A stretch of 33,970 nucleotides of DNA from Dehalococcoidia bacterium (GCA_040902395.1 JBBDXH010000084.1:1-33970), one strand, 5' to 3'. Numbered from the stretch's first letter, positions 672 through 33,970 are shown. Notes: a model not told the origin generated them from the sequence alone. Numbers and translations are program-made.

Positions 672-749
672 CCACCGTCGGGCCACGACGTGTCACGACC
701 TGCCTGCCGCACAGCCGGGCGTTCGGCCCGGCGCAGTGTGGAGCGGCGT

Positions 750-3700: not shown

Positions 3701-4064
3701 GGCCGCCGACGGCTGGGCGGCAGCCGAGGAGTCGGGCTACGCCGTGCTGATCGACACGCGCCTCACGCCGGAGCTGGTCGCGGAAGGCACGGCGCGCGAG
3801 CTCGTGCGCCGCCTCCAGGATCTCCGCCGCGAAGCCGGCCTCGAGGTGACCGATCGCATCCACGTCCGCTACCAGGCGGAGGCGGCGGTGGCCGACGTGA
3901 TCGCAGGGCACGGCGACTACATCGCGCAGGAGACGCTCGCGCTCTCGATCGAGCCGGGCGCGCCCGAGACGGGCGCAACCATCGCCGAGGCGACCGTAGA
4001 CGGACACGCGATCACGCTCGCGGTGCGGAAGGCGCCCTCACCCCCCAACCCCCGCTCCCGATAA
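750..4064 (+). CDS. ileS: Isoleucine--tRNA ligase (type 2, long form), 1104 aa
   Basis: The ORF track frame is 624..4064. I chose the ATG at 750 (MSTFDAVPSRVSFPRQEE..) because GGAG lies 6 nt upstream. HIGH-type motif PGIHHVLAR, KMSKS motif GRKMSKSIGN, and the WCxxC / CExCG zinc-type motifs typical of IleRS are present. Confidence 0.95.
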   Translation: MSTFDAVPSRVSFPRQEEGILDLWRARDVFHRSVTERPADRIFTFYEGPPTANGNPGIHHVLARVFKDLIPRYRTMRGDRVPRKGGWDTHGLPVELEVEKQLGFSSKREIEAYGVEEFNRRCRESVFRYVAEWERMTERIGFWIDTEDAYVTYHPDYIESAWWIFKRLWDNGLMFREFRVTPHCPRCETSLSSHEIAQGYEDDTPDPGVTLRFRLPAGGVIRDSARAALRLADGVPTSLLAWTTTPWTLSGNTALAVSPEATYALVEREDDHLGRERVVVAQALVGASVGDGGNVVATFPGTTLLGIEYEPLYEASAWEGVETLAFVDGRTQRLKALDALPGRRVVASAEVTTDEGTGILHVAPAFGEVDYELGKREGLRFLQPVRLDGTMIGGPGDGIFAKDADALISRDLRERGLLFKSETIRHTYPFCWRCHAPVLYYAKPSWYIRTTAVAQQLIEHNQQIHWVPDHVRNGRFGEWLAGNVDWAVSRERYWGTPLPLWVCEHCGNVTCVGSFDELRALALPGTAQALETPDGFDPHRPFVDAVRISCERCSGLMQRTPEVADAWFDSGAMPYAQWHIPFEHNEMLTERFPADFICEAVDQTRGWFYTLHALATLLHRTEDVPEGIAYRNVICLGHILDAEGRKMSKSIGNVIDPWTVLDEHGADAVRWYMYSASPPGNSRRFSSELVGETARRFIATLWNTYSFFVTYANIADFNPSAPAPPGPRTELDRWIRSELHHTVQRVTAALDAYEVADAARPIEQLVEQLSNWYVRRNRRRFWKSEDDADSAAALATLYECLATIARLLAPFTPFLAESLYQNLVVGKISGAPDSVHLDAWPAADGSAIDEQLSSEMALVQRVVSLGRGARSKAQTKVRQPLAVAVVVPRTAAERAALERLHEPIADELNVKRVEVVEDAGDRLAYALRPNLPVLGPKLGQDVGKIRAALNAAHPADVVAKMRAGEPVTLAGFELSGADILVGVEAADGWAAAEESGYAVLIDTRLTPELVAEGTARELVRRLQDLRREAGLEVTDRIHVRYQAEAAVADVIAGHGDYIAQETLALSIEPGAPETGATIAEATVDGHAITLAVRKAPSPPNPRSR

Positions 4065-4075
4065 TGGGAGCGGGG
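4050..4075 (+). other. GC-rich hairpin (CCCCGCTCCC-GATAAT-GGGAGCGGGG) with the ileS stop codon in its loop
   Basis: Perfect 10-bp inverted repeat 4050-4059/4066-4075. TAA at 4062-4064 sits in the 6-nt loop. There is no U-tract, so it is not a canonical intrinsic terminator. Confidence 0.5.
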
Positions 4076-4163
4076 CGCCGGAACCGCACGGGACAGGACG
4101 CCGCTCGCATCCTCACTACGGCCGGTCGAGCATCTCCTCGGCAGTGAGGGTCATACTGGCCGC

Positions 4164-4745
4164 GTGATCACCAGCGAGCGGATCGAGCTGCGGAGGATGA
4201 GCGTCGAACTGCTCGACGCGCTGGCGGCGGGCGATCACGCCCACGCGCAGGCGCTCGCCGGATTCGCGATCGCGGACGCGTGGAGCCTGTGGGACCGCGC
4301 ACATGCGCGGACGCGCGCGGCCGAGCTGCGCGCCGTGCCGGAACGCGCGCCGTGGATCTCGCGCGCGATCGTCGAACGCGCGTCGGCTGTCATGGTCGGA
4401 CGCATGGGCTTCCACGACCGTCCCGGCGCGGACGACCTCGAGCCCTGGTCTCCGCGCGGCGACGGCCCCGGCGCGGTCGAGATCGGCTACGCGGTGTTCG
4501 CGCCGTATCGCGGCCGCGGCTACGCGAGCGAGGCCGCGGCCGCGTTGATCGACTGGGCGACCCGCCGCGGGATCGCGCAGGTGGTCGCGTCGGTGAGCCC
4601 GACGAACGCGGCCTCGCTGCGGGTGATCGCGCGGCTGGGGTTCGTGCGCGTGGGTGAGCGGATGGACGAGCGCGACGGGCTCGAGCACGTCTTCGTGCGG
4701 GACGCCCGCGTCGCGGCATGCGCGCCTGTGGCACCGCGACCATGA
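4164..4745 (+). CDS. GNAT family N-acetyltransferase (RimJ/RimL-like), 193 aa
   Basis: GTG start. N-terminal SERIELRR motif, acetyl-CoA motif YRGRGYASEA, and C-terminal SNxxSxRVxxKLGF-like motif (SPTNAASLRVIARLGFVRVG). Confidence 0.85.
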   Translation: MITSERIELRRMSVELLDALAAGDHAHAQALAGFAIADAWSLWDRAHARTRAAELRAVPERAPWISRAIVERASAVMVGRMGFHDRPGADDLEPWSPRGDGPGAVEIGYAVFAPYRGRGYASEAAAALIDWATRRGIAQVVASVSPTNAASLRVIARLGFVRVGERMDERDGLEHVFVRDARVAACAPVAPRP

Positions 4746-5308
4746 CGGCGCAGTCCGACGCCACGATCACGACGGCGCGGCTCGAGCTGCGCACCATGAC
4801 CGCGGACTTCCTCGAGGCCACGCTCTTCGGCGATCTCACGCGCGCGGAGGAGCTGGGCGGCTTCACGCTCTCCGAAGATTGGCCAGGTGAGTCGCCGCGG
4901 CTGCTGCGTCACTGGATCGACGCGCTGCGTGCGGACCCGGCCCGCGAGCCGTGGACGGCCCGCGCGATCGTGCAGCGCAGCGACGGGCTGATGGCCGGCC
5001 ACATCGGCTTCCACGACCGTCCGGGCGCCGCCTACCTCGAGCAGTGGGCGCCGGGCGCGAACGCGGTCGAGATCGGCTACACGGTCTTCGCCCGGCACCG
5101 CATGCTCGGCTATGCCACGGAGGCGGCGGCCGGGCTGATGGACTGGGCGTGGCTTCGTCACGGCGTCGACCGCTTCATCGCCTCGGTCAGTCCGGACAAC
5201 GCGCCGTCGCTGCGCGTGGTCGCGAAACTCGGCTTCGTCCGCATCGGCTCGCACATGGACGAAGTCGACGGGCCGGAGGACGTGTTCGAACGGCGCGTCC
5301 CGTCGTAG
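4742..5308 (+). CDS. GNAT family N-acetyltransferase, paralogue of the preceding gene, 188 aa
   Basis: ATG at 4742 overlaps the upstream TGA (ATGA at 4742-4745). TTARLELRTM.., HRMLGYATEA and SPDNAPSLRVVAKLGFVRIG align well by eye with the upstream GNAT. Confidence 0.85.
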   Translation: MTAQSDATITTARLELRTMTADFLEATLFGDLTRAEELGGFTLSEDWPGESPRLLRHWIDALRADPAREPWTARAIVQRSDGLMAGHIGFHDRPGAAYLEQWAPGANAVEIGYTVFARHRMLGYATEAAAGLMDWAWLRHGVDRFIASVSPDNAPSLRVVAKLGFVRIGSHMDEVDGPEDVFERRVPS

Positions 5309-5330
5309 CCGCGTGGCGGCGACCGGCCGC

Positions 5331-6068
5331 TCAGCCGGTCCGACGCCGCAGCGTGGCCGCGCCCAGTGCCAGCGCGATGAGCGTGGTCGCCAGCACCACG
5401 CCCGCGTCGAACGCCAGCCGGGCCGTGAGCGCCTGCGAGCCCGCGATCCGGGAGAGCGCCTCGAAGGCGTAGGTCATCGGCAGGTAGTCCGACGCGATCT
5501 CGAGCGGGCGCACCATCCCGCTGCGCGGCCCGAGCAACCCGCTCAGCAGGATCTGTGGGAGCAGGAACGCCGGCATGAACTGCACGGCCTGGAACTCGCT
5601 CTGCGCGAAGGCGCTGAGGAAGAGGCCGAAGGCCATGCCGTGGAGCGCGTTGAGCACCGCGATCGCGAGCACGGTCCAGAGCGGCGCGGAGATGCGCAGG
5701 TCGAGCACGGTCAGCGCGAAGACGGAGACGAGCAGCGTCTGCACGGCGGCGATCGCCGAGAAGGCCAGCGCGTACCCGGCGAGCAGATCGAGCTTCCCGA
5801 GCGGCAACGTCATCAGCCGCTCGAGCGTCCCGGAGCTGCGCTCGCGGAGCATGGTGATCGAGGTCACCAGGAACATCGAGACGAGCGGAAAGATACCGAG
5901 CAGCGGCACGCCGATGCCCTGGAAGATGCCGGGCCGGGCGTCGAACACCCAGCGAACCACGGCCAGCAGGAAGATCGGCACGGCCAGCAGCAGCACGATC
6001 GTGCGCGGATCGCGACGCAGCTGGCGGAGCACGCGTCGCGCGGTCGCGAGCGTCGCGCGCGCCGTCAC
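5331..6068 (-). CDS. ABC-2 type transporter permease, 245 aa
   Basis: This is the C-terminal 245 codons of track ORF 5331..6674. The GTG start at 6068 overlaps the upstream stop (GTGA). The protein has six hydrophobic segments and an N-terminal RRVLRQLRRDPRTIVLLL motif typical of ABC-2 permeases. The upstream part of the ORF is an Arg-rich shadow. Confidence 0.85.
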   Translation of the reverse strand: MTARATLATARRVLRQLRRDPRTIVLLLAVPIFLLAVVRWVFDARPGIFQGIGVPLLGIFPLVSMFLVTSITMLRERSSGTLERLMTLPLGKLDLLAGYALAFSAIAAVQTLLVSVFALTVLDLRISAPLWTVLAIAVLNALHGMAFGLFLSAFAQSEFQAVQFMPAFLLPQILLSGLLGPRSGMVRPLEIASDYLPMTYAFEALSRIAGSQALTARLAFDAGVVLATTLIALALGAATLRRRTG

Positions 6069-7912
6069 GATCGCTGCTCTCCGGCACCGCCGTGGCGCAC
6101 CAGCGCGAGGAACGCGCCTTCGATATCCCGGGCGCCCGTGCGCGCGAGCAGGCCGGCGGGCGTGTCCTGCGCAAGCACGGCGCCGTCGCGCATCAGCAGC
6201 ACCTCGTCGCAGCGCTCGGCTTCGTCCATGACATGCGTGGAGACGAGCAGCGTGGCCCCGCGCGCGGCGAGCGCGTGAAAGGTCGACCACAGCTCCTCGC
6301 GCAGCAACGGGTCGAGGCCGACCGTTGGCTCGTCGAGCACGAGCAACTCGGGATCGCCGAGCAGCACGGTCGCGAGCGAGACGCGCGCGAGCTGCCCGCC
6401 GGACAGGCGGCCGGTGATGCGCAACGCTTCGCCGCTGAGCCCGACCGCGTCGAGCGTCGCGTCGATCGCGTCGCGCCCGACGCCGAGCACGTGCGCGAAG
6501 TAGTCGAGGTTCTCGCGCACCGTGAGGTCGCGGTAGACCGACGGCGCCTGCGTGAGGTAGCCGACGCGGCGGCGCAGCGGCGCCGCGCCGGCGGGCAAGC
6601 CGAGCACGTCGACCGTGCCGGCGGCCACGGTCTGCACGCCGACGATCGCACGCATGAGCGTCGTCTTGCCGCATCCGCTCGGCCCGAGCAGCCCGGTGAC
6701 CCGCCCATGCGGGATGCGCAGCGAGAGGTCGCGCAGCACGACGTGGCCGCCCCGCACCACGCGCAGCGCGCGCACGTCAACCGCGGCGGCGGGCTCAACC
6801 TCGCCGGGCGGGCGGGCGCCCGGCGCGGCGGCGCCGCGCCGGCCGGCCGCCGCGGGCCGGGGGAGAGACCCCGCGTCGGGCGACGCGGGGCGGGAGAGCT
6901 GTCCGTCCTCGTCGACCGGATGGCCGTCATCGTCGCCTGCGAGCACGAGCCCGCGCGCGAACGACCACAGCGATCGTCGCCAATCGCCCACGTCTTCGCC
7001 ATTCGCGCGCCCCTGGCGGCCCTGGTCGCGCAGCACGTACGGCACCTCCGACGCGATCTCCGCGCCGAAGAGCGTGATGTTCGCCGTGAGGTATACCCAG
7101 AACATCAGCACGATCACGCTCGAGAGCGGGCCGTAGACGAGATCGAAGGCGGCGACGTTCGCCAGGTAGAAGGCGAAGCCCACCTTCAGGCCTTCGAACA
7201 GCAGGGCGGCGATCAGCGCACCCGGCCACGCATCGCGCACGCGGACCTCGCGGTTCGGGATCTGCCAGTAGAGCAGCAGGAAGGCAGCGAACGAGAGGGC
7301 CAGCGGGATCAGGAACGCGCCCAGCTCCCACAACCAGGACGTCCGCGCGAGGACGACGGGCAGCTCCTCGACGCGTAGCTGGGCGAGCCGCCACGCCGTG
7401 GTGAGCACGAGGCCACCGACGAACGGCAGCCCGATAATCGGGAGCAGCACGTAATCGAGCAGCTTGCCGCGGAGCATCGGACGGCCGCGTTGCGATTTGA
7501 AGATCACGTTCAGCGCCGAGCGGATCGCAGCGGCGAGCGCGCCGGCCGTCCACAACGCACCCACCAGCGACACGACCGATAGCGTCGGCCCCAGCGTCGC
7601 CGCGTTCGCGAGCGCCTCGCGCACGGTGTCGGTGTTGTCCGGGTTCAGTGGGAGCTGCGTGAAGAGCTGCTGGAGCACGCGCTCGCGCACGGAGCTCGAG
7701 CGCAGCACGATGCCGAAGACGGAGGCGGCGAGCAGCGTCACGGGGAAAAGGGCGAAGAGCCCGTAGTACGAGATCGCCGCGGAGAGGTGCGTCCCGTGGT
7801 CCTCGACGAAGCTCACCGTCGCGCGACCGAGGATGCGCAGTGCGACGCGGTGGGGCGCCCGCCACACGCGCACCGGGGTCGCGCTTGCGGTGTCCGCGCG
7901 CACGGGTGTCAC
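6065..7912 (-). CDS. YihY/BrkB-family membrane domain fused in frame to an ABC transporter ATP-binding domain, 615 aa
   Basis: GTG start at 7912. Residues about 25-295 carry the motifs AISYYGLFALFPV...ITLFGAEIASE (YihY/BrkB). Residues about 380-615 carry Walker A GPSGCGKT (6662-6685), LSGGQ, Walker B LLVLDEPT and the H-loop STH. No stop codon lies between the two domains, and the linker keeps the G/C third-position bias. Confidence 0.75.
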   Translation of the reverse strand: MTPVRADTASATPVRVWRAPHRVALRILGRATVSFVEDHGTHLSAAISYYGLFALFPVTLLAASVFGIVLRSSSVRERVLQQLFTQLPLNPDNTDTVREALANAATLGPTLSVVSLVGALWTAGALAAAIRSALNVIFKSQRGRPMLRGKLLDYVLLPIIGLPFVGGLVLTTAWRLAQLRVEELPVVLARTSWLWELGAFLIPLALSFAAFLLLYWQIPNREVRVRDAWPGALIAALLFEGLKVGFAFYLANVAAFDLVYGPLSSVIVLMFWVYLTANITLFGAEIASEVPYVLRDQGRQGRANGEDVGDWRRSLWSFARGLVLAGDDDGHPVDEDGQLSRPASPDAGSLPRPAAAGRRGAAAPGARPPGEVEPAAAVDVRALRVVRGGHVVLRDLSLRIPHGRVTGLLGPSGCGKTTLMRAIVGVQTVAAGTVDVLGLPAGAAPLRRRVGYLTQAPSVYRDLTVRENLDYFAHVLGVGRDAIDATLDAVGLSGEALRITGRLSGGQLARVSLATVLLGDPELLVLDEPTVGLDPLLREELWSTFHALAARGATLLVSTHVMDEAERCDEVLLMRDGAVLAQDTPAGLLARTGARDIEGAFLALVRHGGAGEQRS

Positions 7913-10077: not shown

Positions 10078-11604
10078 CTATGGCCAGCGGTAGTTTTCAA
10101 ACGCCCAGTCCAACAGCCCCTGCGCGTCGGGGAAGCGATCCGCATCGTTCAGCAGCACCGCGATCAGACGATGACCGTCGCGGGTCGCCGACACCGCGAG
10201 CGTGCGCCCGGCCTCCTCGGTGAAGCCCGTCTTCAGGCCATCCGCACCCGGGTAACTGGTCAGGAACTTGTTCAGCGTGCGCAGTGCCAGCGGGCGCGAG
10301 CCCTGCGCCGTCCAGGACTTCGCGGAGACGACCTCCCCGAACAACGGCAACGTCATGCCGTAGCGCGCGATCATCGCGAGGTCATAGGCGGACGAGTAGT
10401 GTCCCTGCCCGCCCAGGCCGTGCGGGTCGATGAAGGCGGTGTCCTGCAGACCGAGCCGTGCGGCGAGCATGTTCATCCCGCGCACGAAGTCGTCGTCGCG
10501 TCCGGCGACGTAACGAGCGATCGCCAGTCCGGCATCGTTCCCCGACGGCAGCATGAGCCCGTAGATCAGGTCCCGGAGCGAGAAGCAGTCGCCGGGTCTC
10601 AGGCCCATGACGCTGCTGCCGGGCATCGCCCGGTAGTCCACGCTGTCGTTGACCACCCACTGACCGATGTCGGCGCCCTCGATCGCGACGACGGCGGTCG
10701 CCATCTTCGTGAGGCTCGCGGGCGCGAGTCGCAGGTGTGCGTCGTGTTCGTAGAGCACGGCGCCCGAGGCGGCGTCGATCACGACCCCGGACAGCCCGGC
10801 GATCTTCGGCGCGGGTGCGCCGCCCAGGAGCGTGGGCGCGCCCGCAGACGAGAGCACGATCGGCACGGTCGCCTGCGTCGGCTCGCCGCAGACCACGAAC
10901 AGGATCGTGCCGGGCGGGATGCCGCCGCCGTACTGCGCCTGCCAGTCTCGGTTCACCCAGGACGGCACGCGCGTGAGGTAACCAACCAGCGCGCCGGTGG
11001 CTTCGCGCTGCGCCCAGATCGAGTTCGCGTGGCAGCCGCGCAGCAGCGCCTGCGTCACCACGCCGTTCGTCGTGCCGCCTCCCCAGAGCACCGCACCGAC
11101 GCCGGTCGCCGGGAGTTCGCCGCTGATGCCGGGACGGACCGCGGCGGTCGCGGCGTTCGGCGCCCCGCACGCCGCGCGCTCGCCCTCGGCGATCAGGAAC
11201 TCGTCGGCGACCCAGCCGAGCAGGCTGCCCGCGAGCACGAACTGCCAGCGGTAGTTGTCGTCGGCCTCTACGGACGGCATGACGAGCACCGACGTGCCTT
11301 CGGCGAGGCAGGTGAGGACGGTCGCGTTCGTGCCCGCTCCATCGCGAAGGCGGAGGCACGATCCGTCGGCCTGGACGATCGCGCGGGTCCCCGGCGTCAA
11401 CGGTTGATCGCGGAGCGCGAGCACCCCGGTGATCACGATCGGCGCCGGCGCTGCGTCCGCGGCAGCGACCGGCGGCTGGGGGCGAGGCGACGGCGGCGCG
11501 CCCGCGGCGGACGCGGGCGCGGTATTGAGCAGCGCCAGGGCGAGCAGGAATACGAACAGCGGCGGCAAGGCGCGGAGGGCACGGCGGGGCATCATTCGGC
11601 ACAT
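10078..11604 (-). CDS. D-alanyl-D-alanine carboxypeptidase (peptidase S11 / PBP5-like) with a long N-terminal extension, 508 aa
   Basis: Signal peptide MCRMMPRRALRALPPLFVFLLALALLNTAPASA. SxxK motif ASLTK, SxN motif PSGND and KTG motif LKTGFT lie in the C-terminal approx. 240 aa. Confidence 0.88.
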   Translation of the reverse strand: MCRMMPRRALRALPPLFVFLLALALLNTAPASAAGAPPSPRPQPPVAAADAAPAPIVITGVLALRDQPLTPGTRAIVQADGSCLRLRDGAGTNATVLTCLAEGTSVLVMPSVEADDNYRWQFVLAGSLLGWVADEFLIAEGERAACGAPNAATAAVRPGISGELPATGVGAVLWGGGTTNGVVTQALLRGCHANSIWAQREATGALVGYLTRVPSWVNRDWQAQYGGGIPPGTILFVVCGEPTQATVPIVLSSAGAPTLLGGAPAPKIAGLSGVVIDAASGAVLYEHDAHLRLAPASLTKMATAVVAIEGADIGQWVVNDSVDYRAMPGSSVMGLRPGDCFSLRDLIYGLMLPSGNDAGLAIARYVAGRDDDFVRGMNMLAARLGLQDTAFIDPHGLGGQGHYSSAYDLAMIARYGMTLPLFGEVVSAKSWTAQGSRPLALRTLNKFLTSYPGADGLKTGFTEEAGRTLAVSATRDGHRLIAVLLNDADRFPDAQGLLDWAFENYRWP

Positions 11605-12501: not shown

Positions 12502-13308
12502 GTGAGTGGAAACCGACGACGCGGCAGCCGGCGGCGCGAGCGAGCGGAGCGGCCTGCCGGGGAGACGCGAGCGGCCGGCGGTGGCGCGGGACGAGCGAAC
12601 GCGCGCCCCGGCTGGCGACGCACGCTCGACTCATGGGGCGGCTTCTCGGTCGTGGGGTCGATCCTCGGCGCGGTCGCCGTGGTCGTGGTGCTCGTGGTGC
12701 TCAACCGGCCCGGCTCGAGCGTGAGCGACGACCCGTACGTGCCCATCGCCCGCGCGGCGGTCGACGGCAAGAGCTGGGGCAGCGCAAGCGCGCCCGTCAA
12801 GGTCATCGAGTTCGCCGACTTCCAGTGCCCGTTCTGCCGAGCGTTCTCGCACGATGTCGAGCCGCTGCTCGCACAGGAGTTCATCGACGCCGGCACGGTG
12901 CAGTTGACCTACCACCACCTCGCGTTTCTCGGCCCGGAGTCCGGCCGCGCCGGGGAAGCGGCGGAGTGCGCGGCCGACCAGGGGCGCTTCTGGGACTATC
13001 ACGATCTGCTCTTCCTGCGGCAGGGCCGGGAGAACAGCGGCGCGTTCTCCAACGGCAACCTGAAGGACTTTGCCCGGGAACTGCGGGACGCATACGCGGA
13101 CTTCGACGTGGACACCTTCAATCGCTGTCTCGACTCCGGCGGCAAGCGCGCAGTGGTCGATGCCGCCACGCAGGAGGCGGCGAGCGCGGGGATCGCGCAG
13201 ACGCCGTCTTTCCTGATCAACGGGAAGTTGCTGACGGCGAGCCAGAGCATCGAGGTCTTCCGCCAGGCGATCCAGCAGGCGCTGGCGGCGTCGGGGGCGG
13301 GGAGCTAG
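12502..13308 (+). CDS. DsbA-family thiol:disulfide oxidoreductase, membrane-anchored, 268 aa
   Basis: GTG start with AGGAGAGG upstream. One TM segment. Active site CPFC at 12826-12837 in EFADFQCPFCRAF, with QTPSFLINGK near the C-terminus. Confidence 0.88.
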   Translation: MSGNRRRGSRRRERAERPAGETRAAGGGAGRANARPGWRRTLDSWGGFSVVGSILGAVAVVVVLVVLNRPGSSVSDDPYVPIARAAVDGKSWGSASAPVKVIEFADFQCPFCRAFSHDVEPLLAQEFIDAGTVQLTYHHLAFLGPESGRAGEAAECAADQGRFWDYHDLLFLRQGRENSGAFSNGNLKDFARELRDAYADFDVDTFNRCLDSGGKRAVVDAATQEAASAGIAQTPSFLINGKLLTASQSIEVFRQAIQQALAASGAGS

Positions 13309-13314
13309 CGGGGC

Positions 13315-13770
13315 GTGCGGTCGCGGCGCGTCGACGCGTTGACTGCGCTTTCGGCCGTGGGCGTCGCGATCGCGGCCTACCTCACGTTCGTGGCGTTCGA
13401 CGCGAACGCGGAGGCGTTCTGCACCGGCGTCGGCGACTGCCGGCGGGTGCAGGACTCGCAGTACGCCCGCGTCGCCGGGGTCCCGGTGGCGGCGCTCGGC
13501 CTGGCGATGTACATCGCGCTGCTCGGCCTCGGCCTCGCGCGTCGCGCGGGGCTGACGGTGCTGGGGCCGGGCACGCCCCGCCTGCTGGGCACATGGACGT
13601 TCGCGCTCGCCTTCGCCGGCGCGCTGTATTCGGGGTACCTCACGTACCTCGAGTTCTTCGTGATCGACGCGATCTGCGATTGGTGCGTGACCTCGGCTGC
13701 GATCGTGACGACGATCGCGGTACTCGCATGGCCCGATCTGCGGCACCCCACAAGCGATGCCCCGCCCTGA
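13315..13770 (+). CDS. Vitamin K epoxide reductase (VKOR) family protein, 151 aa
   Basis: Four hydrophobic segments. Loop cysteines in FCTGVGDC, and CDWC (13675-13686) at the start of the last TM segment. The gene begins 6 nt after the DsbA gene. Confidence 0.85.
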   Translation: MRSRRVDALTALSAVGVAIAAYLTFVAFDANAEAFCTGVGDCRRVQDSQYARVAGVPVAALGLAMYIALLGLGLARRAGLTVLGPGTPRLLGTWTFALAFAGALYSGYLTYLEFFVIDAICDWCVTSAAIVTTIAVLAWPDLRHPTSDAPP

Positions 13771-19218: not shown

Positions 19219-19638
19219 TCAGCTACGAATGATCGTGTAGGTCGCGCGACCGACCGCGACCAGCGTGTCGGCCTCGTCTCTGACCTCGACTGCCACGAAC
19301 GCGAGCACCCGTCCGCCGCGCAGCACGCGCGCTTCGGCGATCACGGGACCGGTCGCCGCGCTCACAAACGTGACGTTGAGGTCGGTGGTGGCCTGGCCGG
19401 ACCACGTCTCGTCGTCCTCGCGGCGGGTGGTCGCCGTGGCGGCGCCGGCGGCCGCGTCGATCAGCGACGCGATCGCGCCGCCGTGCATGACGTCGGCGCG
19501 GCGCGTGCCGAGCTCCGGTCGCATCTCGAGCCGAAGCCGGACGTGCCCCGACTCCGCGTCGAGCACAGTGATGCCGAGCGTCCGCCAGTACGCGATCTCG
19601 TCGGCAGCGATCAGATCGCGGAGGCGGTCCGCGGTCAC
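19219..19638 (-). CDS. PaaI-family (hotdog fold) thioesterase, 139 aa
   Basis: GTG at 19638 overlaps the pspC-like stop (GTGA at 19635-19638). Motifs: MHGGAIASLIDAAAG and the C-terminal LVAVGRATYTI typical of PaaI/4HBT. Confidence 0.8.
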   Translation of the reverse strand: MTADRLRDLIAADEIAYWRTLGITVLDAESGHVRLRLEMRPELGTRRADVMHGGAIASLIDAAAGAATATTRREDDETWSGQATTDLNVTFVSAATGPVIAEARVLRGGRVLAFVAVEVRDEADTLVAVGRATYTIIRS

Positions 19639-20195
19639 GACGGTCGGTCGGCGTCGTCGCCCGCGGGCGCGGCGGACGGCTGCTCCGGCTGCGCGTCGGC
19701 GCCGCCTCCGGCGCCGGCGGTGGTGGTGTCGGCGGGCGCCGGAGCGTCCGCGCGCCGCGCCGGCTGATGCGCGATGTCGGAGAGCTCCTCGGCCACGGTG
19801 CGAGCGGCGTCCGCGGCGGTGCGCGCGGCGTCCGCGGCGGTGCGCGCCGCCTCGGAGGCGAGGCGAGCGGCGTCGCTGATGCGGTCCGCAGCGCGGCGGG
19901 CGGCGTCGCCCGCCTCCCGGGCAGCGGTGGCGACCTCGCCGGGACGCAGGCGCTCGCGCAGCGGGCGCGGCGCAGCGGGCGCGGAAGCGCCCGCCTCGTC
20001 CAGCTGATCGGGCCGCGGCACGAGCATCCACGCCGCGAGATAGAGCACGATCGCGAGGCCGCCCGTGGGGATGATCGCGATCAGGGCGAGCAGGCGCAGC
20101 AGCGTCGCGTCGAGATCCCAGCGGCGCGCCGCGCCCGCCAGCACCCCGCCCAGCATGGCGTCATCGAGATCACGGGTGAGGCGATCGCCGGTCAT
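19635..20195 (-). CDS. PspC domain-containing membrane protein with an Ala/Arg-rich repetitive tail, 186 aa
   Basis: ATG at 20195 with a strong AAGGAGGA upstream. LTRDLDDAMLGGVLAGAARRWDLDATLLRLLALIAIIPTGGLAIVLYLAAWMLVP matches the PspC-domain pattern. The rest of track ORF 19635..21323 is antisense to htpX. Confidence 0.8.
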   Translation of the reverse strand: MTGDRLTRDLDDAMLGGVLAGAARRWDLDATLLRLLALIAIIPTGGLAIVLYLAAWMLVPRPDQLDEAGASAPAAPRPLRERLRPGEVATAAREAGDAARRAADRISDAARLASEAARTAADAARTAADAARTVAEELSDIAHQPARRADAPAPADTTTAGAGGGADAQPEQPSAAPAGDDADRPS

Positions 20196-20392
20196 CGTTC
20201 GTTCCTCCTTCGCATGAGCGGCCGCATGCGATGGGTCGGTGGGTCGGCGCTCAGCGTAGCGCGAGCCGGCACGCCGGCGACATGGACGCGAATGCGCAGC
20301 GACGCCGGCATGCGGCACGTCTGATTGAGGTCGCCCGCTGCCCGTCGTATGGCGACGTGCGCGCCGACCTGCGCTCGACCGGTCGTCACCGA

Positions 20393-20398
20393 TATAAT
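20393..20398 (+). promoter_or_regulatory. Perfect TATAAT -10 hexamer upstream of htpX
   Basis: GATATAATGAG lies 53 nt before the htpX ATG. I did not find a good -35 element. Confidence 0.35.
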
Positions 20399-20450
20399 GA
20401 GTTCCGTACCGCAACCGCGCGCACCACCGTTCGAAGAGTGTGAATCCCCG

Positions 20451-21263
20451 ATGCAGAATCTGAAGACCGTCGTCCTGCTCGCCGCGATCAGCGGCTTGTT
20501 GATCGCGATCGGAGGGGCGATCGGCGGAACCAGCGGCGTGATCGCGTTTGCCGTGATCGCGGCCGTGATGAACTTCGCTTCGTACTGGTTCTCCGCCGAT
20601 ATCGTGCTCCGCACCGCGCACGCCCGCGAGATCGAGCGCTCCGAGGATCCCGAGTTGTTCCGCCTGATCGAGCAGGTGGCCGCGGACGCCGGCATGCCGA
20701 TGCCGCGCGTCTACTCGATCGATTCGCCCCAGCCGAATGCGTTCGCCACCGGACGTGGCCCCAGTCACGCGGCTGTGGCCGTGACCTCCGGGATTCGCGC
20801 GCTGCTGACGCCGCGTGAGCTGCGGGGCGTGCTGGGCCACGAAATGGCGCATGTGAAGAACCGCGACATCCTGACGTCGTCGATCGTGGCGACGATCGCG
20901 TCCGCGATCTCGATGGTCGCGTGGATGTCGCTGTGGTTTGGTGGGCGACGCGATGGCGCGACCGGACTGGTCGCGGCGCTGATCGCGCCGATCGCGGCGA
21001 CGCTCATCCAGCTCGGGATCAGCCGCTCGCGGGAGTACCAGGCAGACAGCGACGGCGCGCGCATCGTGCAGGATCCGGACGCGCTCGCATCGGCGCTCGC
21101 GAAGCTCGAAAGCGGCGCGCGACGCGTGCCGATGCAGGTGCCGGAAGCGACCGCGCACCTCTTTATCGTGAACCCGTTCAGCGGACGCCAGGCCGCGGGG
21201 CTGTTCGCCACACACCCGCCGATTGAGCAGCGCATCGAGCGCCTGCGGCGTATGCGCGTCTAG
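20451..21263 (+). CDS. htpX: Zinc metalloprotease HtpX (peptidase M48), 270 aa
   Basis: ATG at 20451 (MQNLKTVVLLA..). Motifs: NAFATG, HEMAH zinc motif (GHEMAHVKNRD), SRSREYQADSDGA, and THPPIEQRIERL. Confidence 0.93.
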   Translation: MQNLKTVVLLAAISGLLIAIGGAIGGTSGVIAFAVIAAVMNFASYWFSADIVLRTAHAREIERSEDPELFRLIEQVAADAGMPMPRVYSIDSPQPNAFATGRGPSHAAVAVTSGIRALLTPRELRGVLGHEMAHVKNRDILTSSIVATIASAISMVAWMSLWFGGRRDGATGLVAALIAPIAATLIQLGISRSREYQADSDGARIVQDPDALASALAKLESGARRVPMQVPEATAHLFIVNPFSGRQAAGLFATHPPIEQRIERLRRMRV

Positions 21264-21344
21264 CGCCCGGGGCAGCGGCGATCCGGAGCAGACGGGGCGC
21301 ACCCGCGCGCTCGCGGTATGCATTGCGAGGCGCGCCGTAGGCGG

Positions 21345-25795: not shown

Positions 25796-27961
25796 TTGAC
25801 CCGTTCCAGTCCTACTACGCATGATTCTCCTGTGCCGGACCAGTTATTGCGGGTCGGTCAGGTGACAGGTGACGGGCGATGGAGCTCGCACGTGTGGAAT
25901 CCGGGCCGGTGGGCACTTGCGATCGTCATCGCCGTACTGGCGGTGATGTTCGGCGCTCCCGCGACCGCGCACGCGGACGATACGTTCGCCGACCTGTGCG
26001 CCCGCGTCTCAGATGAGGCCGCGGGCTCCAGGGTGAAGATGGGGATCGTGGTGATTGACCTCGCGACCGACGCGCGGTGCGACGTAAACGCCGACGACAC
26101 GTTCCGAACGGCGTCGCTCTACAAGCTCGTGGTGCTCGCGGAAGCCTACCGCCAGGCGGCGGAGGGGACGTTCGACTTCTCGGCTCCGATCGACCTCGAG
26201 CCGCGACACGCGATCGATGACCCGCCGAGCTTCCAGCTCACGGAGACGATCACCATCGGGCGCACCGAAGCACTGGGCCGCATGATCCGGCTCTCGGACA
26301 ATGCCTCGGCCGCCGCCTTGCGCGAGCGCCTCGGCTATGCGGAGGTCGCCGCCGAGCCCGCGCGCCTGGGCATGCAGCACACCGAGCTCAGTGAAACGGC
26401 GTTCGTCTCGACACCGTCGGACATCGCACAGCTGGTCACGAATCTCTACCGCGGGACCGTGGTGGACGCCGCCAGCAGCGAAGCCATGATGGACCTGCTC
26501 AAGCAGCAGGGGGTCACCGACCTCATCCCCGTGGGCCTGCCGGACGGCACGGTGATCGCCCACAAGACCGGCACCCTCGACACCGTGCTCCACGACGTCG
26601 GCGTGGTCTATGCGCCGGCTGGCGACTACGTGCTGGTCGCGATGACGCAGCACGAGTCCGACTACCCCGCCGCCGCGCGGGCGATCCAGGAGCTCTCGCG
26701 CACGGTCTACGCGGCATACGGCGGAACCACGCCGCCGTACGCCGTCAACGAACGCCTGGAACAGCGAGTCGCGGCGACGCGGCTGATCAACGTGATCCCG
26801 GTCGAGCTCCTGCAGACGGCGCCGGCCGAAGCTCTCGTGGCCGCGCCTGCAGCGGCGATCGCGCCCGCTGCGGAGCCCCCCTTCATTGAGTCGTCCGGGT
26901 CGCCCTTCGGGCGGCTCGACGCGCCGGTCGTCCCTGCCGTCGCACTCGCGATGTTGCTGTTGACACCGGCCATGGTGTTCGCCGCGCGCACCTGGAACGC
27001 GCGGCGGGGACGGCGACCGGTATTCGCCGAAGTTGAGAGCCGGCTCATTCCGGCGGGAAGGTCTCCCCAGATGCGTTTTGGAAACAGGCGAGAACAAGAT
27101 GATCAGTACGACCAGTACGAGGAGGAACAGCCCGTGACACGCGCGGCCGCGACCACCGAGATGGGCGCGCCGGCGATGCTGCCCTCGCGCCGCTTGCAGC
27201 GCGTTGGCGAGCTGTTCCGCACGCACGCCGAGTTGCTCGACCAGATGCGCGCGCAGTTCCAGGACGAACTGCAGCCGCTCAACGAGCTGCTCGCTCGTCA
27301 GGCGGCGACCATGCAGCAGCTCCTGCTCAACCTCGAGCAGCGGCTGCGCCCGCTCAACGAGTACGCGGACAGCGAAGAGTCGAACCTCGAGTCGCTGGAG
27401 CGACGCATGCGCGAGTCCGGCAGCGACTTTGTGACGCGCTCGTTCTCCGAGTACGTCCTGCAGCAGCGCAAGCGGATCGCCGAGACGCGCCAGCAGATCG
27501 ACCAGCAGCGCACGCCGTTCTCGCAGTACGGCGAAGATCAGCGCGACGCGGTCGAAGTCGCGCTCGCGCGCTTCGATGAAGACGTGGAGAACCTCGAGCT
27601 CAACCTCGCGGACCAGCGCAAGGTCATGATGCGGATGCTCGACTCGATGCGCTCGGAGAGCTTCGCCGCGGTCAAGGAGTACCTCCAGAACCGCGAAGAA
27701 GTGATGTCCGAGCTGGCCACAAGCGGCATGACCGACCCGAGCGAGATCGGTCGCTCGGTGCAGGCGCTCCGCCAGAGCATCGAGGCGATGGCGCAGGAGT
27801 CGGCGCACATCCAGTCCGTCCTCCAGACGACGGACGAGGCAGACCGCCGCCTGTCACGCACGGTAGCGGGAAGCACCGCCGGGCCGCGCCCACTGCCGAG
27901 CCAGACCCGGCAAACCGCCTCGGTCGCGGTCTCGGCGAACGATGAGGAAGCGAGCGCCTAG
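25796..27961 (+). CDS. Membrane protein of 721 aa: N-terminal signal/anchor, class-A beta-lactamase-like (serine hydrolase) ectodomain, TM helix, approx. 320-aa cytoplasmic coiled-coil region
   Basis: TTG start at 25796 (uncertain). Hydrophobic segment WALAIVIAVLAVMFGAPATAHA. SxxK motif ASLYK (Ser codon 26114-26116), SDN in RLSDNASAAAL, and KTG in AHKTGTLD. Second TM segment VVPAVALAMLLLTPAMVFAA (approx. 26924-26992), followed by NARRGRR. The Q/E/L/R-rich heptad-like C-terminus keeps strong third-position G/C bias. Confidence 0.8.
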   Translation: MTRSSPTTHDSPVPDQLLRVGQVTGDGRWSSHVWNPGRWALAIVIAVLAVMFGAPATAHADDTFADLCARVSDEAAGSRVKMGIVVIDLATDARCDVNADDTFRTASLYKLVVLAEAYRQAAEGTFDFSAPIDLEPRHAIDDPPSFQLTETITIGRTEALGRMIRLSDNASAAALRERLGYAEVAAEPARLGMQHTELSETAFVSTPSDIAQLVTNLYRGTVVDAASSEAMMDLLKQQGVTDLIPVGLPDGTVIAHKTGTLDTVLHDVGVVYAPAGDYVLVAMTQHESDYPAAARAIQELSRTVYAAYGGTTPPYAVNERLEQRVAATRLINVIPVELLQTAPAEALVAAPAAAIAPAAEPPFIESSGSPFGRLDAPVVPAVALAMLLLTPAMVFAARTWNARRGRRPVFAEVESRLIPAGRSPQMRFGNRREQDDQYDQYEEEQPVTRAAATTEMGAPAMLPSRRLQRVGELFRTHAELLDQMRAQFQDELQPLNELLARQAATMQQLLLNLEQRLRPLNEYADSEESNLESLERRMRESGSDFVTRSFSEYVLQQRKRIAETRQQIDQQRTPFSQYGEDQRDAVEVALARFDEDVENLELNLADQRKVMMRMLDSMRSESFAAVKEYLQNREEVMSELATSGMTDPSEIGRSVQALRQSIEAMAQESAHIQSVLQTTDEADRRLSRTVAGSTAGPRPLPSQTRQTASVAVSANDEEASA

Positions 27962-31230: not shown

Positions 31231-31277
31231 GTCGGGTGCGTGGGGCGCGGTCAATCCAATCGTCGTAGTTCTTGAAT

Positions 31278-31312
31278 CCCCGGCGGCCGGCCTGGCCGTG
31301 ACGGGGTTTCTT
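31278..31312 (+). terminator. Imperfect hairpin plus TTTCTT in the rpoB leader (possible attenuator, or the S8 gene terminator)
   Basis: CCCCGGCGGCC..GGCCGTGACGGGG at 31278-31306, followed by TTTCTT at 31307-31312. Confidence 0.3.
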
Positions 31313-31400
31313 CATGTCTCCGCACATCGGAGCACGAACGAGCTGCTGACGCCGCCGCATCCGCCCCGCCACCGCGACGGGTCCGCGAGGGGAGTATCGC

Positions 31401-33970
31401 TTGACCATTGACCGCCGCATCGTCTCGTCCCTGCGAAAGGTGCCTACCCTCAAGAGGGACTTCGGCAAGGCCGTGCATGTCATGGAGATGCCGAACCTGA
31501 TCGACATGCCCCGTCGGTCGTACGAGCGCTTCCTCCGAGAGGGGCTGCGCGAGCTGTTCGACGAGATCTCGCCGATCGAGGACTTCACGGGCGGCCGCAT
31601 GGAACTGCGCTTCGGCGAGTACCACTTCGAGGATGCGAAGTACTCGGAAGCCGAGTGCCGCGACCGCGAGCGCACCTACGCCGCGCCGATGCGCGTACGC
31701 GTCGAACTGCTGGTGAAGGAGACCGGGGAGGTCAAGGAGCAGGAGCTCTTCATGGGCGATGTGCCCATGATGACCAACCACGGCACGTTCATCATCAACG
31801 GCGCCGAGCGCGTCGTGGTTTCGCAGCTCGTCCGGTCGCCGGGCGCCTACTTCACCGCCGACACGGATCCCGCCACCGGCCGCAGGCTGACCGCCGCCAA
31901 GCTCATTCCGAACCGCGGCGCATGGCTCGAGTTCGAGACCTCGAACAAGGACCTGATCTCGGTCAAGGTCGACCGCAAGCGCCGCATCCCGGTCACCGTG
32001 CTGCTGCGCGCGATCGACCAGGAAGAGGGCCTCACGAACGACGAGCTCGGCGTGGACGATCGCGTGCGTGCGCTGCTCCAGGACGTGGACACGAACGAGG
32101 ATCACTCCTACCTCGAGGCCACGCTCGCGAAGGACCCGACCGAGAACCGCAAGGAAGCGCTCGAGGAGTTCTACCGGCGCCTGCGCCCCGGCGATCCCCC
32201 CACGACCGACAATGCCAACGCGCTGCTCGAGACGTTGTTCTTCACTGACCGTCGCTATGACCTCGGCAACGTCGGCCGCTACAAGCTGAACAAGCGCCTG
32301 GCCCTCGTCGACGCACCAGAGACCCGCACGCTCCGGCGCGCAGACCTCGTCGCGATCGTGCGGCGCATCTTCGACATCAATAACGGCAAGGGCACGGCGG
32401 ACGACATCGACCACCTGGGCAACCGCCGCGTGCGCTCGGTGGGTGAGCTGATGCAGAACCAGTTCCGCATCGGCCTGCTGCGCATGGAGCGCGTGGTTCG
32501 CGAGCGCATGACGATCACCGACCCCGAGGAGGCCACGCCGTCGGCGCTGGTCAACATCCGTCCGGTGGTCGCGTCGATGAAGGAGTTCTTCGGCGGCTCG
32601 CAGCTCTCGCAGTTCATGGACCAGGTGAACCCGCTCTCGGAGATCGCGCACAAGCGCAAGCTCTCCGCGCTCGGCCCCGGCGGTCTCTCGCGTGACCGCG
32701 CGGGCTTCGATGTGCGTGACGTACACCACAGCCACTACGGCCGCATCTGCCCGATCGAGACCCCCGAAGGTCCGAACATCGGCCTGATCGGCAGCCTGGC
32801 GTCCTACGGCATCGTGAACGACTTCGGCTTCATCGAGACGCCGTACCGCCCCGTGATCCACGAACTGCCGAAGCGAAACAACCGGCAGCTCACGGGCCGC
32901 ATCCTGGCCGACACCGTGAAGACCGAGACCGGCAAGATCCTCGGTCGCGAGGACCAGACGGTCGACGAGGACATGGCGCGCGCCCTCGGCGACGCCAAGG
33001 ACGACATGATTCCCGTGCGCCCCTTCGCCTCCGCCGAGGTCGTCTATCTCGACGCGCACGAGGAGGAGAAGTTCCGCATCGCGCAGGCAAACACGGCCGT
33101 CGATGCGAGCGGCAACATCCTCGACCAGCGCGTCGAGGTGCGGCACGGCGAGGAGCTCGCGATGATCGCGCCGGTGGACGTCGACTACATCGACGTCTCA
33201 CCCAAGCAGATCGTGTCTGTGGCCGCCGCGCTCATTCCGTTCCTCGAGCACGACGACGCGAACCGCGCCCTCATGGGCGCGAACATGCAGCGGCAGGCCG
33301 TGCCGCTGATCCGCCCCGAGGTGCCGCTCGTGGGCACGGGTGTGGAGCTGCAGGCGGCGGTCGACTCCGGCCAGGTGATCGTGGCCGAGGAGGACGGCGA
33401 GGTGCTCGTCGCGACGGCGAACTTCATCACCGTCCGCTACCAGTCGGGCCGCGAAACGCGCCACCCGGTGCTCAAGTTCGTGCGCTCGAACCAGGGCACG
33501 TGCGTCAACCAGCGTCCGATCGTCGAGCCCGGACAGCGCGTGCGGCGCGGCCAGCCCCTCGCCGACTCATCCTGCACGCAGGACGGCGAGCTCGCGCTCG
33601 GTCAGTCGCTGCTCGTCGGGTTCATGTCCTGGGAAGGCCTGAACTTCGAGGACGCGATCATCCTCTCGGAGTCCATCGTTCGCGACGACAAATTCACCTC
33701 GATCCACATCGAGAAGTACGAGGTGGAGGCGCGCGACACCAAGCTCGGGCCTGAGGAGATCACGCGCGACATCCCGAACGTCGGCGAAGAGGCGCTTCGT
33801 GACCTCGACGACGAGGGCATCATCCGCATCGGCGCCGAGGTCCGTGAGGGCGACATCCTCGTCGGCAAGATCACGCCGAAGGGCGAGACGGAGCTGACGC
33901 CGGAGGAGAAGCTGCTGCGCGCGATCTTCGGTGAGAAGGCGCGCGAGGTGAAGGACACGAGCCTGCGCGT
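31401..33970 (+). CDS. rpoB: DNA-directed RNA polymerase subunit beta, 5' partial (856 codons; continues beyond the window)
   Basis: This frame is not listed in the ORF track because it has no stop in the window; I translated it by hand. TTG at 31401 with GAGGGGAG 6 nt upstream. [23 protein letters not shown].., [84 protein letters not shown]. Confidence 0.96.

Follow-up and report, generated by a model that had tools for sequence, protein, structure and literature searches.

A putative PBP-A-type peptidase joined across the membrane to an undescribed cytoplasmic domain family in Dehalococcoidia

What does an enzyme that works outside the cell gain from a large helical domain on the other side of the membrane? 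The question is raised by an open reading frame (ORF) of 721 codons in a 33,970-nucleotide stretch of DNA from a Dehalococcoidia bacterium (JBBDXH010000084.1:1-33970 of assembly GCA_040902395.1; about 70% G+C), referred to here as the window. Little is understood of the envelopes of Chloroflexota or of the machinery by which they divide and remodel their walls. An initial annotation, made from the window sequence, had read the encoded protein as a beta-lactamase-like sensor that passes a surface event on to the cytoplasm. We found instead that the ectodomain is PBP-A-like, that the linkers on both sides of the membrane are predicted to be disordered, and that the cytoplasmic part is an autonomous module that also occurs on other hosts. 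This architecture, a PBP-A-type peptidase combined with an undescribed family of cytoplasmic domains, is new, and full-text searches found no description of it in the literature.

A recurrent fusion of four parts

Homologues were collected with a word-index protein search and with an exhaustive HMMER scan of 1.84 billion cluster representatives, for which residues 400-721 served as the query. The word-index search returned about 30 proteins of 664-801 residues, all from Chloroflexota/Dehalococcoidia metagenome bins, which covered 85-95% of the query at 43-82% identity. The HMMER scan raised the total to about 40 full-length homologues, so the survey for the same fusion that the initial annotation had called for found the layout to recur down to 43% identity. 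The order of the parts was the same in all 41 complete fusions compared: enzyme domain, linker, hydrophobic helix, net-positive flank, linker and module.

The four-part layout and the topology first proposed for the protein were confirmed by Pfam, by AlphaFold2 models and by comparison of these homologues. The product is a type I membrane protein, with its ectodomain outside and its module in the cytoplasm (Table 1). The SxxK, SDN and KTG motifs lie where they had been reported, and Table 1 gives their exact residues. The reported transmembrane (TM) helix with NARRGRR as its positive-inside signal was also borne out: the AlphaFold2 model has a helix over residues 378-403 that is followed by ARTWNARRGRR, with a hydropathy of 2.3 and a net charge of +5 over the first 15 residues beyond it. 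One strong TM helix and a net-positive segment after it were present in each of the 41 complete homologues. The stalk on the outer side of this helix scored below 50 in the predicted local distance difference test (pLDDT) over residues 333-377, and the linker from ectodomain to TM helix measures 50-149 residues (median 70) among the 41 homologues. The linker from TM helix to module scored below 50 over residues 404-462, and its length varies from 52 to 108 residues (median 61).

Such an ORF could also arise if two adjacent genes had been joined by an assembly error or a frameshift, a possibility raised at the outset for positions 26,900-27,100 and one to which we give almost no credence. Several contigs of metagenome-assembled genomes do carry the two halves interrupted or in different frames (loci L001, L005, L007, L008 and L016-L018), and the module exists elsewhere as an independent gene. 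However, the window ORF is continuous, and its third-position GC content (GC3) crosses the suspected junction without a break. GC3 is 0.83-0.97 in the enzyme domain, 0.70-0.85 in the linkers and 0.88-0.95 in the C-terminal region, and thus stays within 0.70-0.97 over the whole ORF; the earlier view that the frame is a real gene, coding up to its stop codon by third-position G/C bias, holds. The 41 complete fusions come from many samples, reach down to 43% identity at more than 85% query coverage, and include one on a 1.87-Mb contig (L006). In an alignment of 29 family members, R403, M426, R427 and G429 are conserved across the junction (R427 and G429 invariant, M426 nearly so), and the C-terminal part holds more invariant columns than the enzyme domain. 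The broken versions, in turn, sit in low-coverage or multiply damaged contigs. The chimera was therefore rejected.

The apparently split or enzyme-only relatives at these seven loci proved to be the fused gene with single frameshifts, an in-frame stop or a truncation, and a Rosetta-stone check for intact adjacent enzyme and module genes found no clean pairs among them. They are either decaying genes or the products of sequencing or assembly errors. At four of the loci the enzyme part is intact and the module part broken (L016, 2823-3278; L017, 6392-7437; L018, 3851-4945; L001, 7890-8768). A scan for related loci with the single protein matched four genomes.

The TTG that opens the ORF lies 32 codons too early in our reading, and the true start is probably the GTG at 25892 (codon 33), because a GGAG motif stands 7 nucleotides upstream of it, the homologues P0001, P0002 and P0007 start at this position, and the first 32 codons are unconserved, with lower GC3 and with AlphaFold2 pLDDT values below 40. 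From this GTG the protein begins with a typical signal peptide that ends in A58-H59-A60 before D61 (DD), where the family consensus is PAxAxA; cleavage is predicted before D61.

Table 1. Features of the fusion gene and its product, in window coordinates
Feature	Position	Strand	Residues	Basis or remark
Whole ORF	25796..27961	+	721 codons	TTG start; stop codon included
Probable start and putative Sec-type signal peptide, MWNPGRW-ALAIVIAVLAVMFGAP-ATAHA	25892..25975	+		GGAG upstream, homologue starts, family consensus
Extracytoplasmic PBP-A-type (class-A-like) penicillin-binding domain, predicted DD-peptidase	25979..26725	+	62-310	PF13354, PBP-A match
SxxK motif	26114-26125	+	S107-L-Y-K110	
SDN motif	26294-26302	+	S167-D-N169	
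KTG motif	26564-26572	+	K257-T-G259	
Ala/Pro-rich extracytoplasmic stalk	26726..26926	+	311-377	Predicted disordered
Single TM helix, then positive flank ARTWNARRGRR	26927..27004	+	378-403	AlphaFold2, hydropathy
Cytoplasmic acidic disordered linker	27005..27181	+	404-462	Contains M426-R-F-G (27071-27082)
Conserved all-helical cytoplasmic module (about 230 residues)	27188..27868	+	465-691	AlphaFold2, conservation, undescribed family
Disordered C-terminal tail ending ...DEEASA	27869..27958	+		pLDDT below 50; conserved small-residue end peptide

The outward-facing enzyme domain

Residues 83-284 matched the Pfam family PF13354 (Beta-lactamase2) with an E-value of 4.9e-44 and 150.7 bits against a cut-off of 22, and the match took in positions 1-214 of the 214 in the profile. 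S107, K110, S167, N169, T258 and G259 are invariant in the 29 family members, as is K257 in 28 of them. The closest solved relative by sequence is the penicillin-binding protein (PBP) PBP-A of Thermosynechococcus (Tll2115; 2j7v/2j9o; E = 5e-21). The AlphaFold2 model exceeded a pLDDT of 90 over residues 62-310, and its best structural match in Foldseek was again PBP-A, with a TM-score of 0.85 and a root-mean-square deviation of 2.4-2.6 Å. Next came the Sphaerobacter (Chloroflexota) protein 4ewf and then LRA-5, a class A 'precursor' in which position 166 is Val. By sequence and predicted fold, the ectodomain belongs to the PF13354/PBP-A group.

The omega loop bears on what this domain does. In PBP-A the position equivalent to Glu166 is occupied by Leu158. 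The loop of the window family is truncated (residues 196-203), with 6-7 residues between the invariant T196 and F203, a gap of 6 residues relative to PBP-A and of 11 relative to 4ewf. Its positions 197 and 200 vary among E, D, S, R, A and other residues, and neither is a conserved acidic one. The omega-loop Glu that the initial annotation had proposed to look for has no conserved counterpart, nor does Asn170. PBP-A itself has been shown by experiment to be a DD-carboxypeptidase/DD-endopeptidase that prefers amidated muropeptides, and it differs from class A beta-lactamases in lacking the omega-loop Glu that activates the deacylating water (PMC11189452). Because the active-site motifs are invariant and the omega loop is without a conserved acidic residue, we expect the window domain to be open to acylation and catalytically competent as a penicillin-binding peptidase; a beta-lactamase is not expected.

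A membrane-anchored class A beta-lactamase that gives antibiotic resistance would present the same three class A motifs, and the E-values for both PF13354 and the NCBIfam family bla_class_A are significant. Yet bla_class_A gives only 81.6 bits where its curated cut-off is 200, and all named bla families fall far under their cut-offs. The truncated omega loop, which holds no conserved equivalent of Glu166 or Asn170, also argues against such an enzyme, as does the identity of the closest structures, PBP-A and the Glu166-less LRA-5. We consider resistance by this route very improbable, and on the grounds of the loop and the NCBIfam score a true class A beta-lactamase was rejected. For resistome surveys and annotation, this means that 'class A beta-lactamase' calls of this kind are PBP-A-like peptidases rather than resistance enzymes.

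The resemblance to PBP-A (T. elongatus; 2j7v, 2j8y, 2j9o, 2jbf) extends to the SxxK/SxN/KTG motifs, the missing omega-loop Glu, the extracytoplasmic location and the PF13354 match. The two proteins nevertheless share only about 24% identity, and the window family has an omega loop 6 residues shorter and an invariant Cys pair. The window protein, whose DD-peptidase activity is predicted, continues C-terminally into a stalk, a TM anchor and the cytoplasmic module of about 230 residues, none of which PBP-A has. The paired cysteines, C68 and C95, are invariant in the family and would fit an extracytoplasmic, disulfide-bonded domain.

Two other loci in the window concern the same compartment. An adjacent gene pair for a DsbA-like thioredoxin and a VKOR protein (12502-13770, plus strand) points to extracytoplasmic disulfide formation, in keeping with the two invariant cysteines of the ectodomain. 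An S11 D-alanyl-D-alanine carboxypeptidase is encoded at 10078-11604 on the minus strand; its S11 domain occupies residues 265-487 of 508, and the N-terminal extension of about 260 residues has no Pfam match. Together, these three products imply that the organism makes and processes peptidoglycan and that its exterior is oxidising.

The C-terminally anchored low-molecular-weight PBPs of the S11 type (PBP5/DacA) offer a functional comparison, because they too are DD-peptidases that stand outside the cell on a stalk and are held to the membrane by their C-termini. By analogy, the window protein would work like an anchored low-molecular-weight PBP. It differs from PBP5/DacA in its fold family (class-A-like rather than S11), and the anchors of PBP5/DacA are short amphipathic or TM helices without a cytoplasmic domain.

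The cytoplasmic module and its hosts

Conservation of the module equals or exceeds that of the enzyme domain, with more than 50 invariant columns in the 29-sequence alignment. The HMMER scan yielded 100 module representatives at E <= 1e-3 and 41 at E <= 1e-30. An AlphaFold2 model built with a 95-sequence alignment reached a mean pLDDT of 92.6 and placed helices at module positions 11-87, 90-137, 140-164, 167-188, 194-205 and 216-238 (add 454 for the residue in the protein). The full-length model joins the second and third helices into one, so that the hairpin consists of two arms of about 77 residues each, with three or four short helices after it. Comparison of the module profile with itself revealed repeat offsets of 25 and 80 residues. 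The repeated L-x-P-L-N-E motifs noticed earlier are real, and their prolines recur: in the 95 module proteins P494, P519 and P574 never vary, and 64% have P599. Given the repeat offsets and the recurring conserved prolines, the two arms look like an internal duplication.

The initial annotation had described a region of about 320 residues with heptad character. Its helical nature held up, and its heptad character did so only in part. Hydrophobic periodicity is 3.55-3.6 in the two long helices and reaches 3.5 only in the last segment, a pattern that is typical of amphipathic bundle helices rather than of a classic coiled coil as far as periodicity can tell. In the confident AlphaFold2 monomer model, the two long helices are predicted to fold back as an intramolecular hairpin or bundle.

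The statement that the C-terminal region carries no recognisable enzymatic motif could be extended to profile and structure searches. The module gave no family match in Pfam (searched with the single protein and with all 95 members), NCBIfam, PADLOC or PHROGs, its profile found no significant match among all PDB sequences, and Foldseek searches of PDB and BFVD with the module model returned no match at E < 0.5. Below threshold we saw generic long-helix matches to the ExoVII linker, DUF1664, Mce4_CUP1, apolipoprotein, spectrin and the ZorA tail. Spectrin_SYNE1 appeared in this way in 41 of the 95 members, with a best score of 25.6 bits against a cut-off of 35, and membership in the spectrin repeats was set aside because no hit reached the Pfam gathering threshold. 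The best Foldseek match in PDB was a CHMP2A/CHMP3 chain (E = 0.59, TM-score 0.27/0.38); other weak ones were to ESCRT-III, PspA, chemoreceptor, BAR and SMC helices, and in BFVD to PspA and TelA.

With ESCRT-III, PspA/Vipp1 and EzrA the module shares gross anatomy only: a short hydrophobic N-terminal peptide in the standalone forms described below, a long hairpin with shorter helices, disordered spacers and a conserved C-terminal peptide. Its arms of about 77 residues are much longer than those of ESCRT-III/PspA/Vipp1, and its internal repeats with invariant prolines set it further apart. PspA_IM30 (PF04012) and Snf7 (PF03357) were not among the 25 most frequent of the 262 Pfam families matched when the 95 members were scanned. 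Alignments with hhalign gave probabilities of 0.9% for PspA and 1.5% for Snf7; the target sequences were entered by hand, and these values serve as leads only. Neither profile nor fold tests support membership in the ESCRT-III/PspA/Vipp1 group. The module is an undescribed domain family. It has about 100 representatives at the level of 50%-identity clusters, and these come from Chloroflexota or from contigs that bear the labels Acidobacteria and Methylomirabilales. A family definition would give an identity to a block of what are now 'hypothetical proteins'.

The module also stands alone. In a closely related lineage, two independent assemblies (L003/L004) carry a 284-residue module gene at the position that the fusion gene occupies in the window, upstream of a convergent flavin-reductase gene and with RuvB, PspC, histidine-kinase and M48 genes nearby. 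No enzyme gene lies next to it at this locus, and the 343 nucleotides before it are non-coding and include a GAGAAGGGG ribosome-binding site. Among the standalone module proteins, at least 25 begin at MRFG(S/N)R... or, 16 residues further upstream, at M-x-WRSLF, and the module profile (A3) aligns to the window protein from residue 426. Since the standalone starts correspond to M426-R427-F-G429 and the profile alignment begins at the same residue, the joint is visible in the sequence: MRFG appears as the ancestral N-terminus of the module, kept in the fusions. A GGGAAGG motif is found 9-15 nucleotides upstream of the Met426 codon (27052-27082), and internal initiation there, giving a free cytoplasmic module, is conceivable.

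A more distant standalone family, common in other phyla, has about 290 residues and 22-27% identity to the window module. Its termini read M..SSFLSRWTGRPE at the N-terminal end and R-[LVI]-E-[AP]-A-S at the C-terminal end. In L009-L014, all from one lineage, its gene (about 7001-7879) occupies a conserved block of envelope genes in the order glycosyltransferases, UDP-glucose dehydrogenase, WecA/MraY-like GT4, DUF4321, Maf and module, with ExbB/ExbD, DedA, PhoU-like and TatA/TatC genes beyond. The fusion proteins have conserved ends of their own, ...EEASA, EEATA or TVAGA (27941-27958 in the window), which are held apart from the helical core by disordered spacers. Ala is the last residue in 31 of 47 fusion proteins, typically as ASA, ATA or AGA. 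These terminal peptides may be docking or degron motifs.

The second independent host of the module is a different enzyme altogether. In other Dehalococcoidia the module comes after the C-terminal TM helix of a SipW/ER-type signal peptidase I; the host domain matches TIGR02228 with 96 bits against a cut-off of 52. Both kinds of fusion occur in one genome: on a 14.6-kb contig (L015), the PBP-A-type fusion P0022 (727-2829) and the signal-peptidase fusion P0101 (4562-6091) are 1.7 kb apart on the same strand. Their modules are only about 25% identical. P0101 is followed in this region (727-7237) by a camelysin/TasA-like (M73) gene, which is of the classic type of SipW substrate (PMC4551309), and by a gene for an fn3 protein. 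One further representative (P0131) joins the module to an ExeA-like P-loop (AAA) ATPase. The pattern of hosts marks the module as an autonomous, mobile unit that, judged by its sequence relatives, was once a separate gene.

Possible roles of the module and its genomic setting

We favour, tentatively and with slightly less than even confidence, a reading in which the module tethers or clusters ectoenzymes from inside the cell. In this proposal the signal peptide would be removed and the outward domain would act as an active-site-serine DD-peptidase of the PBP-A type, trimming or cleaving peptidoglycan stem peptides that contain D-Ala-D-Ala; beta-lactams would acylate it without being hydrolysed efficiently. 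The flexible Ala/Pro stalk, of 50-150 residues, would let the domain reach into the wall while the single TM helix anchors it. The module would receive no conformational signal from outside. It would instead associate with itself, or bind a partner in the cytoplasm or at the membrane face, and would in this way set the place and the company of the attached ectoenzyme; for the SipW-type signal peptidases of related Dehalococcoidia the same module would do the same job.

The reading draws on three features: the module is autonomous, it is joined to two unrelated ectoenzymes that each have a C-terminal TM helix, and the linkers decouple it from them. Known transmembrane receptors depend on a rigid, continuous helix to transmit a change of conformation. 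Because both linkers are long, variable in length and predicted to be disordered, a conformational relay is disfavoured. A tether or scaffold is likewise preferred to a dedicated output domain, since the module exists as a protein of its own and has been joined to an unrelated ectoenzyme and to an ATPase as well. The high conservation of the module would suit a specific interaction surface. The wiring of one and the same module to a wall-trimming PBP and, in relatives, to a signal peptidase would point to an unexplored way of positioning or coupling outside enzymes from within the cell. The fusion offers a solid lead into how Chloroflexota may organise their envelope enzymes.

An outside-in sensor, close to what was first proposed, strikes us as quite unlikely. 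On this account, acylation or muropeptide binding would alter the module, for instance by clustering or regulated proteolysis, and the module would then act on a cytoplasmic target. The bitopic layout, which pairs an external, ligand-binding PBP-like domain with a conserved internal one, suits such a role, and so do the invariant penicillin-binding residues. The conserved terminal peptides could be degrons or docking motifs, and envelope-stress genes lie close by: a PspC-domain gene, a histidine kinase and an M48 peptidase are within 6 kb of the fusion gene, and an extracytoplasmic function (ECF) sigma factor is encoded in the syntenic locus L001. However, two acyl-CoA dehydrogenase genes on the other strand separate the stress genes from the fusion gene. 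The TM helix lies between two disordered and variable linkers and lacks any HAMP-like or continuous-helix link to its neighbours, and the module has no recognisable kinase, helix-turn-helix, protease or anti-sigma output. Moreover, the module is found as a soluble protein, on a signal peptidase and on an ATPase, and neither of these hosts is a ligand sensor.

The known beta-lactam sensors have other layouts. BlaR1/MecR1 resemble the window protein in combining an outward penicillin-binding domain and a cytoplasm-facing part in one polypeptide. BlaR1 places a class-D-like C-terminal sensor on a four-TM zinc-protease (M56) domain, and its output is the cleavage of BlaI. The window protein differs from BlaR1/MecR1 in having a class-A/PBP-A-like domain at its N-terminus, a single TM helix, disordered linkers and a helical module. 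No M56 or class D match was found in Pfam or among the 25 NCBIfam families listed. PASTA kinases combine PASTA repeats outside the cell and a Hanks kinase domain in the cytoplasm, and no PASTA or Pkinase match was found at Pfam E <= 1, in agreement with the initial annotation, which had set the layout apart from those of BlaR1/MecR1 and of the PASTA kinases.

The module could also act on the membrane in its own right, as PspA/ESCRT-III or apolipoprotein-like amphipathic-helix proteins do, by binding its surface, remodelling it or protecting it under stress. The TM anchor would then replace a targeting peptide, and the enzyme and the module would act independently. We regard this as unlikely, though by no means negligible. 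At their N-terminus the standalone forms have a conserved short peptide of hydrophobic or aromatic character (MxWRSLF or SSFLSRW), which is absent from the fused forms. A long helical hairpin followed by short helices, the proline-punctuated helices with their amphipathic periodicity of 3.6 residues, and weak top Foldseek matches to ESCRT-III and PspA (in BFVD to PspA and TelA) all suit such a function, as do sub-threshold apolipoprotein and Mce4_CUP1 matches in about half of the members. The genes of the distant family have envelope genes around them (Maf, ExbB/ExbD, DedA, Tat), and the module appears to decay beside an intact enzyme in L016-L018. Statistical support for homology is lacking, however: Foldseek E-values are 0.59 or higher at TM-scores of 0.27-0.38, hhalign gives about 1% with the hand-entered PspA and Snf7 sequences, and the 25 most frequent of the 262 Pfam families matched by the 95 members include neither PspA_IM30 nor Snf7. 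The envelope context comes from one lineage, and independent fusion to two ectoenzymes with C-terminal anchors suggests something more than a convenient anchor.

Several points weigh against tethering as well. The scaffold role is read from the architecture, and the DD-peptidase activity of the ectodomain is predicted from its homology to PBP-A. Disordered linkers are compatible with signalling through ligand-induced clustering or proteolysis. The enzyme can apparently persist without the module, as the frameshifted or truncated modules of L016-L018 indicate if they are not sequencing errors. Comparison of the related loci revealed no convincing conserved operon partner for the module; the adjoining flavin-reductase gene is convergent, and this synteny may reflect only the relatedness of the genomes.

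A bolder version of the scaffold idea, which we offer as doubtful, is that the module represents an unrecognised family of membrane-face scaffolds or polymers, analogous to ESCRT-III/PspA/EzrA and unrelated to them in sequence, which would organise PBP-A-type and SipW-type enzymes in Chloroflexota, with the standalone forms acting likewise through their terminal peptides; alternatively, it might be a new output domain of a new class of cell-wall sensors. The probability that remains beyond the readings listed is left to functions we have not conceived of.

The order of the PspC, histidine-kinase and M48 genes near the fusion gene varies among the related loci. A minus-strand ORF at 19635-21323 contains a PspC domain near its C-terminus only and overlaps a strong Peptidase_M48 gene on the plus strand (20325-21263); the PspC gene itself is probably much shorter, and the long ORF an artefact of high GC content. 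A 631-residue ORF on the minus strand (31251-33146) gave no Pfam match at E <= 1e-3, and at its position related loci carry an ECF sigma factor and genes without assigned function. Further away, the minus-strand region 5331-7912 contains a gene for a 615-residue protein that combines a BrkB/YihY membrane domain (residues 37-291) and an ABC ATPase domain (residues 393-530), an unusual-looking fusion that is followed by an ABC-2 permease.

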